Below, one piece after another: positions 1 to 1,901 of a stretch of DNA of 56,437 nt. The position numbers and the translations under genes are program-made. The notes below the pieces were generated by a model. It was not told the origin of the DNA. It saw only the letters and a program-made list of their open reading frames with translations, and ran no database searches. Numbering within the stretch: position 1 is the stretch's first letter; every line of letters starts with the position of its first letter. Origin of the DNA: Armatimonadota bacterium (lineage in GTDB: Bacteria > Vulcanimicrobiota > JACPDS01 > JBDRKI01); assembly GCA_043814095.1 (NCBI GenBank), contig JBDRKI010000032.1, positions 1 through 56,437 on the forward strand, read 5' to 3'.

Positions 1-42
1 CCCAGAATATATCATTCGACTTACACTCTATCCTCAAATTGA
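1..42 (+). CDS. C-terminal fragment of intron-encoded reverse transcriptase/maturase (5' part outside window)
   Basis: Frame 1 reads PRIYHSTYTLSSN-stop. PRIxH resembles the end of domain X in endonuclease-less bacterial intron proteins and lies 15 nt before domain V. Confidence 0.65.
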   Translation, partial: PRIYHSTYTLSSN

Positions 43-140
43 GGATGTATTCTTGTGGAGCCGAGTGCGGGAAAACCGCTCGCTCGGTTCTGCGAGGGGC
101 ATTAAGTAATCAAAGGAGGTTATAAAAGATGTCTACTCAC
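1..140 (+). mobile_element. 3' end of a group II intron (end of RT ORF, domain V, domain VI)
   Basis: 58-90 GAGCCGAGTGCGGGAAAACCGCTCGCTCGGTTC folds as domain V (AGC triad, 2-nt bulge, GAAA-type loop). 94-102 GAGGGGCAT pairs with 129-138 ATGTCT-A-CTC leaving bulged A135, followed by terminal AC (139-140). Confidence 0.85.
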
Positions 141-1901
141 AGAATAAATTTTAAGGTTTTTATCGCTTTACTCTTATGTTGTTTTTGTTTTTCTATTTCG
201 GCGTATGCCGTAAGCGAAGTAAATTATACGGTTGACATGACAGATCCCGGGAATCATTTTTTTAAAGTTGAAATAAAGATTGATTCTCCTGAGGGAGATT
301 TTACGGATCTGGTCATGCCGCGGATTATACCCGGGATTTACCATTATAGGGATTACGCTAAAAATGTTCAGGAATTTTCCGCCTTTGACGGATCAGGCGC
401 ACCTTTAAAGTGGGAGAAAATTGATCTGCATACATGGCGCGTTTATTCGGAAAATGCGGGAAGCCTAACCGCGAAATATAAGGCTTACGCGCCCGAGGTA
501 AGCTGTGTAGAGTCATTTCTTAATACCCATAAAGCTTTAATTAACGAAGGCACAATCCTTATGTATATTAAAGACAGGACGGATATCCCGTGCAGGTTAT
601 GTCTTAAATATCCTAAAGGGTGGAAAACGGCAACAACACTTAAAAGTGCCGGTGAAAATATTTATACCGCACCCGATTATCATTTCATGGCTGACCGTCC
701 CGTAATGCTGGGGGATTTCAGGGAGACAAAGTTTGAGTATAAAGGCGCGGAATATGTAATAGTGCTTGATGGTTCATTAAAGTTTGATCTGGATACATTT
801 AAGGCTGATGTTGAAAAAATAGTGAAAAACGAAGTCGATATGATGGGTGGAGTTCCCTTTAAGAAATATATATTTTTCTATTTACACTCGTATGCTTCTC
901 AAGAAGGTTTTGGCGGGTTGGAGCATTTCGATAACGCGGTTATGGTTGTGGAACCTGCGTTCGGCATAGACGGGATTTTAGGATTAACCGCGCATGAGTT
1001 TTTTCACCTGTGGAACGATAAAAATATTCATGCGGATGTAATTTACCCGTTTAATTACAATAAAGCGGATTTTACGCGCCTGTACTGGTTTTTTGAAGGA
1101 TTTACAAGCTATTATGATACCATGGTAATGGCAAGGATAAAGAAAACGGAACCAGAGGAGTTTTTTAAAGATATAGCGGGTGCGATAAAGGCGACGGAAG
1201 AAATTGCAGCTAACAAACATATTACCCTTGAAGATGCAAGTTTCGGCGGCTTTTTTCTTTGGCCGCAGAATTTTGACGAAAAATTTCTTAATTTTTACCA
1301 GAAAGGCAAACTTGCCGGTTTGCTTATGGACCTTAAAATAAGGCACTGTACGCGCAATAAAAGGTCCATCGACGATGTAATGAGATATCTTTATAAAAAT
1401 TACGGCATGAAAAATATAGGGGTCCCTGAAGGAAAGATGGGCGAAATTATAGTGAAAGCGACAGGCGTAAATATTGATGATATTATTAATGATTATGTAA
1501 AAGGCACTAAAATCCCGAATTATAATAAATACCTGAATTACGCGGGATTGGAGTTGAAAATAGAAGAGAAATGGCCCGGCCCGTACATGGGCATAGGCGC
1601 TGAAGAGTATGGCTGTGGCATAATTATTACAAAAATAACCAGAGACTCCCCTGCCGAAAAGGCCGGGCTCAGCATAGATGATGTTATTGTGGCCGTTAAC
1701 GGCGTTAAAGCAGATAAGGGCGGTTTTTTGGTCAATTCTAAGCCATATGAAATAGTAAAAGTAACCTTATTCAGGAATAATGTACTTATGACAAAACAGG
1801 TCTATCTGGGCAAAAAGGGATTTGAAAAATATGAGATTGTCGAGTTGAAAAACCCGGACAAACTCCAGAGAGAAATTTTAAAGAACTGGCTTGGAGAATA
1901 A
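129..1901 (+). CDS. M61 family glycyl aminopeptidase with C-terminal PDZ domain, exported
   Basis: Signal peptide (..SAYA), GGLEH, HEFFH zinc motif, WFFEGFTSYY, PDZ-like C-terminus (SPAEKAGL..D.I.AVNG); SD AAGGAGGT at 113-120. Confidence 0.9.
   Translation: MSTHRINFKVFIALLLCCFCFSISAYAVSEVNYTVDMTDPGNHFFKVEIKIDSPEGDFTDLVMPRIIPGIYHYRDYAKNVQEFSAFDGSGAPLKWEKIDLHTWRVYSENAGSLTAKYKAYAPEVSCVESFLNTHKALINEGTILMYIKDRTDIPCRLCLKYPKGWKTATTLKSAGENIYTAPDYHFMADRPVMLGDFRETKFEYKGAEYVIVLDGSLKFDLDTFKADVEKIVKNEVDMMGGVPFKKYIFFYLHSYASQEGFGGLEHFDNAVMVVEPAFGIDGILGLTAHEFFHLWNDKNIHADVIYPFNYNKADFTRLYWFFEGFTSYYDTMVMARIKKTEPEEFFKDIAGAIKATEEIAANKHITLEDASFGGFFLWPQNFDEKFLNFYQKGKLAGLLMDLKIRHCTRNKRSIDDVMRYLYKNYGMKNIGVPEGKMGEIIVKATGVNIDDIINDYVKGTKIPNYNKYLNYAGLELKIEEKWPGPYMGIGAEEYGCGIIITKITRDSPAEKAGLSIDDVIVAVNGVKADKGGFLVNSKPYEIVKVTLFRNNVLMTKQVYLGKKGFEKYEIVELKNPDKLQREILKNWLGE

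Follow-up and report, generated by a model that had tools for sequence, protein, structure and literature searches.

Bacterial group II introns are thought to survive by avoiding genes, since transcription-coupled translation leaves little time for splicing. In group IIC introns the insertion site follows a terminator hairpin, and insertion sequences that carry outward-facing promoters bring expression signals to the neighbouring gene. Also among the closest described systems are the specialised IIB1 introns located at initiation or termination codons, all of which have 300-700 nt inserted at the base of domain I (PMC12584367, summarising Michel et al. 2007). The hosts of this start/stop-codon lineage are housekeeping genes, with one conserved site per intron, and its studied members, Avi.groEL and EcKTE56.groEL, lie in the groEL stop codon and regenerate a stop; how the lineage colonises start and stop codons was stated to be unexplained (PMC12584367).

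The stretch of DNA analysed in this work (the window: 56,437 nt from an Armatimonadota bacterium, contig JBDRKI010000032.1 of assembly GCA_043814095.1) corresponds to contig C32 from its first base, and the assembly breaks inside an intron. This intron is probably complete, and it is probably a group II intron that homes to start codons and carries a replacement for the translation start in its domain VI (D6). Like the IIB1 start/stop introns, the lineage to which it belongs (the window lineage) sits in or beside a translation signal and preserves the host frame without splicing: all 17 distinct 5’ junctions of the lineage, and one on another contig of the same genome (C62), lie within or next to a start codon, the kind of position that characterises these IIB1 introns. 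The first base of the groEL intron regenerates a stop, which is the mirror image of the window lineage, whose end supplies a start. Important differences from the IIB1 introns were also observed. The 300-700 nt insertion in domain I is missing from the window lineage (full-length members of 1904-2002 nt, the RT AUG of L064 lying 517 nt after the 5’ end), and its hosts are diverse and mostly not housekeeping genes, a separation drawn from the description of the IIB1 introns. Its RT has about 436 amino acids, versus an ORF of at least 1994 nt in EcKTE56.groEL.

In the window lineage, as in group IIC introns, the exon pairing is very short (AUGA plus one base in the former) and the target is a generic gene-boundary signal that acts as a safe harbour, but the window lineage is located at start codons and its ribozyme is of the Rfam D1-D4-6 type. 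With insertion sequences it shares the condition of a mobile element bringing signals for the gene beside the insertion; however, their signals drive transcription and new expression, whereas the signal of the window lineage replaces the translation start which the element itself separated from the gene.

The features of the window were as follows:

1-42, + strand: C-terminus of the RT/maturase, at the end of domain IV; last 13 codons plus TGA (frame 1 of 1-39 reads PRIYHSTYTLSSN, followed by the stop).
58-90, + strand: domain V (D5), 33 nt; AGC triad at 59-61 and 2-nt bulge at 80-81, from the RF00029 alignment and the fold.
92-141, + strand: D6, with the bulged branch-point A135; proposed 3’ splice site between 141 and 142.
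113-120, + strand: Shine-Dalgarno sequence (SD) AAGGAGGT in D6, divided between the loop (113-117) and the distal helix (118-120) and separated from the AUG by 8 nt.
123-125, + strand: in-frame TAA, two codons 5’ of the D6 AUG; it ends the ORF 3..125, closing the frame that comes from the intron.
129-131, + strand: D6 AUG, in the 3’ strand of the D6 main stem; ORF start on unspliced RNA (MSTH-RINFK...).
142-1901, + strand: 3’ exon, encoding the M61 peptidase and its signal peptide; joined to the 5’ exon from C62 it would read M-R-I-N-F-K-V-F...

The Rfam model RF00029 (Intron_gpII) matched positions 56-142 of the + strand with 47.5 bits (E 1.5e-7; gathering cut-off, 40 bits), bearing out the group II identity proposed by the initial annotation. 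The minimum-energy fold of the same segment (-35.9 kcal/mol, z -5.28) was equalled in stability by none of 200 shuffles. D6 folded into a main stem (94-103/128-138), a distal helix (106-111/118-123) and a 6-nt loop (112-117), with A135 as the sole bulge. Sequence and fold agreed with the initial annotation in placing the SD inside D6, and its reading of the 3’ strand of the D6 stem as ATG-TCT-ACT-CAC, codons M-S-T-H of the M61 ORF in frame with the signal peptide, was likewise correct, as was the location of the branch A in codon 3, A135 being the first base of this codon. The ORF 129-1901 encoded 590 amino acids, with Peptidase_M61_N, Peptidase_M61 and PDZ domains in addition to the signal peptide. 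The SD and AUG of D6 are in frame with this gene, and its translation without splicing, as had been suggested, is possible. The expected occlusion of the ATG by D6 was also recovered in the fold, in which the AUG and part of the SD are base-paired; since the AUG and the GG of the SD are paired in the predicted ribozyme fold, the splicing fold and initiation at D6 should exclude each other.

The start sequence ATGTCTACTC, whose repetition in other genes of the genome had been proposed as a check, was found once in the 2.5-Mb genome (about 4.8 occurrences expected under uniform composition), and the D6 motif and the intron 5’ end also had one occurrence each. Three other D5-D6 matches, belonging to another intron family with a different D5, were present in the genome (C23:40536-40606, C38:1690-1760 and C35:5122-5192 on the - strand), and an RT was located at C38:628-1248. 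A 22-nt exact match between window 141-162, beginning at the intron/exon boundary, and C83:700-721 (- strand; E 6.8e-4 in the genome) lay antisense within an ORF (512-1276) that is SurE-like by reading of its N-terminus; it was set aside as probably an AT-rich chance match.

The pattern AAGGAGGT-N7-GATGTCTACTC was found in at least 116 metagenome contigs. Eighty of the matching stretches were fetched, with flanks seen up to 2 kb, and 75 loci including the window were left after removing identical 3’ flanks, 72 of them with at least 100 nt downstream. One locus (L072) was a chance match of the pattern with no other likeness to the lineage. The loci were chosen by a pattern that demands the SD and the AUG, so conservation of these two elements is not readable from the set. 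The frame of the D6 ATG was long (100 codons or more, or 30 or more when still open where the contig stops) in 59 of the 72 loci, versus 0 and 3 of 72 for the other two frames, and no long ORF started at the D6 AUG in the remaining 13; this count is not circular, because the pattern says nothing about the sequence after the motif.

Thirty-five of the 52 distinct ORFs of at least 90 codons starting at the D6 AUG matched a Pfam family at E 1e-5 or better. The host families included seven periplasmic solute-binding proteins, ABC permeases, FeoB, an IS110 transposase, a family-2 glycosyltransferase, a radical-SAM protein, DsbC, an M23 peptidase and a CopG antitoxin, among others, and lipoproteins were also present. 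In many host ORFs the domain match started 5-12 residues after the ATG, at profile position 1-2, indicating that the intron is located at the true N-terminus of real genes. In L077, a full-length copy, the host was the IS110-family transposase (DEDD_Tnp_IS110, residues 9-166), so that the intron had entered another mobile element.

The RT/maturase of the family matched TIGR04416 with 373 bits (cut-off, 300) and ended in PKIYHLTYTLSS followed by Y, H, N or C and the stop codon. RF02005 was found in five of five full-length loci analysed (97-137 bits). Three loci (L090, L106, which is the same as L124, and L123) were ORF-less mini-introns of 608-663 nt, with both ends, D1-D3 and D5-D6 but no RT gene; they occupy start codons as the full copies do, and presumably rely on help in trans. 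Twelve loci (L060, L068, L071, L074, L081, L086, L097, L102, L111, L116, L119 and L136) formed a second subtype, distinguished by the spacer ATTTGAA and by about 60 nt inserted in the 5’ half of D6; the D5-D6 of this subtype, analysed in L071, was below the gathering score of RF00029. In L092 the D6 tail (the motif at 744-769 and the next 30 nt) was tandemly duplicated, giving a protein that starts MSTRHSTRH..., as if there had been a second insertion or footprint at the same site.

The structure was conserved across 35 distinct D5-D6 sequences. Standard pairs occupied 98.8% of the cells (92.1% in shuffles), covariation was 0.233 versus 0.110 when shuffled (0.233 was reached in none of 500 shuffles), and slid controls gave 36-50% pairing. 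Compensatory changes affected 7 of the 13 pairs of D5 and two pairs of the distal helix that holds the GG of the SD. The D6 stem containing the AUG was 100% paired, and 9 of 9 changes on its 5’ strand kept the pairing, its 3’ strand being fixed by the search pattern. The 33-nt length of D5 reported by the initial annotation was correct, but not its description as shorter than usual: the same form was present in all 35 aligned members of the family and in 25 loci of many phyla, most of which had a short GC-rich D6, none with an SD/ATG.

Two introns outside the set, both of the Rfam D1-D4-6 type like the window lineage, were its nearest relatives in sequence. A plasmid intron of Candidatus Megaera polyxenophila (CP113872.1) encoded an IEP 56.5% identical, the nearest plasmid-borne RT; it has an enlarged D6 (L175:2829-3021) with an ATG that reads across the predicted splice site for only 33-34 codons, annotated as a hypothetical protein. 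A common Klebsiella/Citrobacter plasmid intron, with an IEP about 40% identical, ends in ...CUACCGCGAC/A (the slash marks the splice site here and below) as does the window lineage; unlike the latter, its D6 is short and GC-rich, without an SD or AUG, suggesting that the SD/AUG of D6 is a trait derived within the clade of the window lineage.

The 5’ junctions revealed a common target. Unrelated 5’ exons converged on an SD-like run, 6-9 nt, ATG and a purine, followed by GUGYGCCGAG; the ATG plus purine/GUGYG arrangement was present in 17 of 17 distinct junctions, all in different sequence contexts (16 ATG+A and 1 ATG+G). The intron ended in ...CUACUCGAC in most loci, and the first base of the 3’ exon was A in 62 of 75. 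The insertion point is after the first base of codon 2, and ligation of the exons gives natural starts such as MKRRLFF..., MKKLFFCMILIVLLAASC... and MIKYHVGVDVSK... The D6 AUG is 13 nt from the splice site, so that without splicing M-K is replaced by M-S-T-R-Q (or H), after which the reading follows the frame of the host.

Domain I carried UUCAU, complementary to AUGA/A, in 16 of the 17 aligned copies, and the copy whose exon ends in AUGG carried UCCAU, a compensatory change. An EBS2 (CCUCC) pairing with the host SD was also expected in domain I, but none was conserved among the 17 aligned copies; the 5’ exons may owe their SD to post-insertion selection and not to targeting. Inspection by eye of 16 aligned 5’ exons revealed no common hairpin.

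The 75 loci were sorted by alignment to seven full-length references:

Full-length: 15 loci; long ORF from the D6 AUG in 11, short in 1, too little sequence downstream in 3.
ORF-less mini-introns (608-663 nt): 3 loci; long ORF in 2.
5’-truncated, more than 300 nt kept: 4 loci; long ORF in 3.
5’-truncated, 71-300 nt kept: 10 loci; long ORF in 10.
Remnants of 29-68 nt: 15 loci; long ORF in 9.
Running off the contig, including the window: 27 loci; long ORF in 24.
Chance match: 1 locus; long ORF in 0.

The 29 5’-truncated loci do not have domain I and therefore cannot self-splice; a long ORF started at the D6 AUG in 22 of them. An Rfam search of twenty of the loci without a recognisable D5 gave no match at E 0.01. 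Three remnants were located in a single genome, G477, among 151 sampled from the phylum of one deltaproteobacterial MAG. One of them heads a full-length DHDPS/dapA gene (residues 5-289 matching profile positions 2-288 of 289), and this was the only DHDPS match in G477. A sole DHDPS behind a remnant is the strongest sign, although an indirect one, that the intron-derived SD/AUG works as a start. Two orthologs of one remnant-headed gene (L117), 82% and 64% identical, begin with MKK... and MIN..., respectively, which is consistent with the idea of a scar, though not decisive.

Slippage between the host SD and the SD of D6 is at most a possible origin of the shortest remnants, as their truncation points range from 29 to 68 nt and the 5’ sequence of D6 is present in diverged form in several of them. 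Three remnants preceding different genes (L114, L177 and L178) had about 75 nt more in common upstream of the SD, including a C6...G6 hairpin; this segment may be a compound repeat or a small element travelling with the remnant.

The truncated copies bear directly on an alternative explanation of the D6 signals, in which the SD and AUG would serve the intron itself, for instance through a ribosome that protects the intron RNA or times splicing, the host would be expressed only after splicing and the in-frame ORFs would follow from the fixed insertion phase. Splicing does give the natural start in all 17 junction pairs, but the fixed phase alone is insufficient for an in-frame AUG, since the 13-nt distance must also be kept. 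An association between group II introns and ribosomes is the subject of a paper (PMC3851717), and the AUG and the GG of the SD are sequestered in a well-supported D6; however, the long ORFs of the 22 copies without domain I can start only at the D6 AUG, one of these copies heads the sole DHDPS gene found in G477, and the in-frame TAA two codons upstream blocks earlier starts. We consider a purely intron-serving SD/AUG unlikely.

The completeness of the intron in the window was addressed with the rest of the genome. The first 87 nt of a full-length relative matched the end of contig C62 by blastn (75% identity). In reverse complement, the last elements of C62 are an M61 paralog, TAA, GGAGG-N5-ATG-A/GUGCG and, as far as the contig extends, 139 nt of domain I. 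The paralog (C62:159-1901, - strand) was 46% identical to the M61 of the window (129-1901), and the closest public M61 homologs also included two paralogs on one contig (P0002 and P0006; P0003 and P0004). The two M61 paralogs appear to be arranged in tandem, the second being interrupted at its start by the intron, and the most economical layout would be C62 (reverse complement), an unassembled RT region and C32, the two contigs being presumably adjacent. Only the last 13 codons of the RT are present, and D2-D4 are unassembled. The intron of the window is probably complete, with the RT C-terminus, D5 and D6 at 1-141 as its 3’ end.

The 5’ exon on C62 also helped to place the 3’ splice site. Splicing after 141 would produce ATG A/GA ATA AAT... 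(MRINFKVF...), in frame with the C62 exon, whereas splicing after 140 or 142 would lead to a TAA at the fifth or third codon, respectively. From these sequences the 3’ splice site is most likely after A141. As this is the only position in frame with the C62 exon, the branch A would be at -7, with six bases after it as elsewhere in the family; the ACA tail was common to L098, L109 and one contig from the Logan collection. The branch A at -6 given by the initial annotation presumed splicing after 140, at variance with the reading phase of the family and with the C62 exon, and with splicing after A141 the apparent shortening of the branch-to-end distance vanishes.

These results did not favour the conclusion of the initial annotation that the intron is a variant or decaying copy domesticated as the start of the M61 gene and no longer able to splice, a reading which we regard as improbable. 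It is true that the contig begins inside the intron, with D1-D4 outside the window, and that no RT of the intron’s family was found in the genome bin by tblastn (only the 38%-identical RT of another intron, on C38), but the RT C-terminus at 1-39 is intact with its stop, and the 5’ GUGCG junction followed by 139 nt of domain I closes C62, correctly oriented and preceded by the tandem paralog. The RT C-terminus, the model match and the intron 5’ end on C62 are the features whose absence would have spoken against a group II intron at this locus. All the pairs of D5 and D6 are standard, the branch A is bulged, and the 33-nt D5 and the branch distance are normal. The copy is the only one in its genome and in 401 genomes of the phylum, and domesticated remnants do exist; domestication, with a ribozyme-less remnant as the only start of a gene, is seen at other loci and not in the window, where the SD/AUG is a built-in feature of a widespread intron lineage and was not acquired at the M61 locus.

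In the window’s phylum the motif was present in 1 of 401 genomes, the window’s own, and the copy was probably acquired horizontally. Related tails, found by their likeness to the window, were present in Logan contigs from public runs labelled as groundwater, aquatic and sediment metagenomes; they showed 4 differences and 1 gap, 12 differences, and 20 differences with respect to the window, and diverged from it at 138-141, where different 3’ exons start. One Logan contig was identical to window 135-304, across the intron/exon junction. Comparison of window 1-145 with sixty relatives gave only three short D5-like matches, and the motif was present in none of five genomes reached through D5-type loci. 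A metagenome scan with the D5/D6-junction pattern of the window gave no match, the relatives differing at the D5 bulge. Among the public sequencing runs found to contain the window stretch there was no RNA run. The only members found independently of the motif were the one Megaera plasmid intron and the Logan contigs. It is extremely improbable that the assembly or binning misjoined an intron tail from another organism to the M61 gene: related tails are common in the same sample types, the motif is otherwise missing from the phylum and the contig break falls in the repeat, but the junction architecture and reading phase are as in 59 of 72 other loci, the identical Logan contig spans the junction, and the complementary 5’ junction lies beside the paralog on C62, with ligation of the exons in frame.

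The preferred interpretation, a start-codon-homing intron with its own replacement start, would work as follows. The element would insert in a host SD, spacer, ATG, purine/A context, its own sequence extending from GUGYG to CUACUCGAC, and would place a second SD and AUG, in D6 and 13 nt 5’ of the 3’ splice site, in frame with the 3’ exon. In the genome analysed here it would occupy the downstream copy of the tandem M61 pair, with the 5’ exon and the first 139 nt at the end of C62. Three fates of the RNA can be proposed. Splicing would bring back the native start (M-RINFKVF...). Without splicing, a ribosome that starts at the native AUG would stop after 12 codons in domain I, and one that starts at the SD/AUG of D6 would make the full peptidase, with MSTH in place of M, a change that would be harmless in the n-region of the signal peptide. 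Initiation at D6 would require unfolding, the AUG and part of the SD being paired. The D6 AUG would be in actual use, and its role would presumably be to make insertion at a start codon harmless.

More tentatively, and with somewhat less than even confidence, we propose that D6 carries a portable initiation module (SD, in-frame stop and AUG) which lets the intron colonise almost any ATG-A/A start without silencing the gene; that truncated remnants are kept as the ribosome-binding site and start of many genes, including an apparently essential one, leaving an MSTR(Q/H) or MSTH tag; and that D6 acts as a switch between splicing and translation, an apparently undescribed arrangement. No account of a domain VI that supplies the 3’ exon with an SD or AUG was found in the literature searched, Michel et al. 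2007 and one major review being outside its reach, and the strategy itself has a fair chance of being undescribed.

If the preferred interpretation is right, an intron whose target is the point where a gene is most sensitive, but which brings a ribosome-binding site and a start, would represent a different solution to the problem of splicing time. It would also make the competition of ribozyme folding with translation initiation directly testable within a single RNA, and would offer a natural design for gene-targeting introns that spare the downstream gene. For the host genomes, the lineage would be a source, derived from a retroelement, of gene starts and of short N-terminal tags (MSTRQ, MSTH) whose origin annotators would not recognise.
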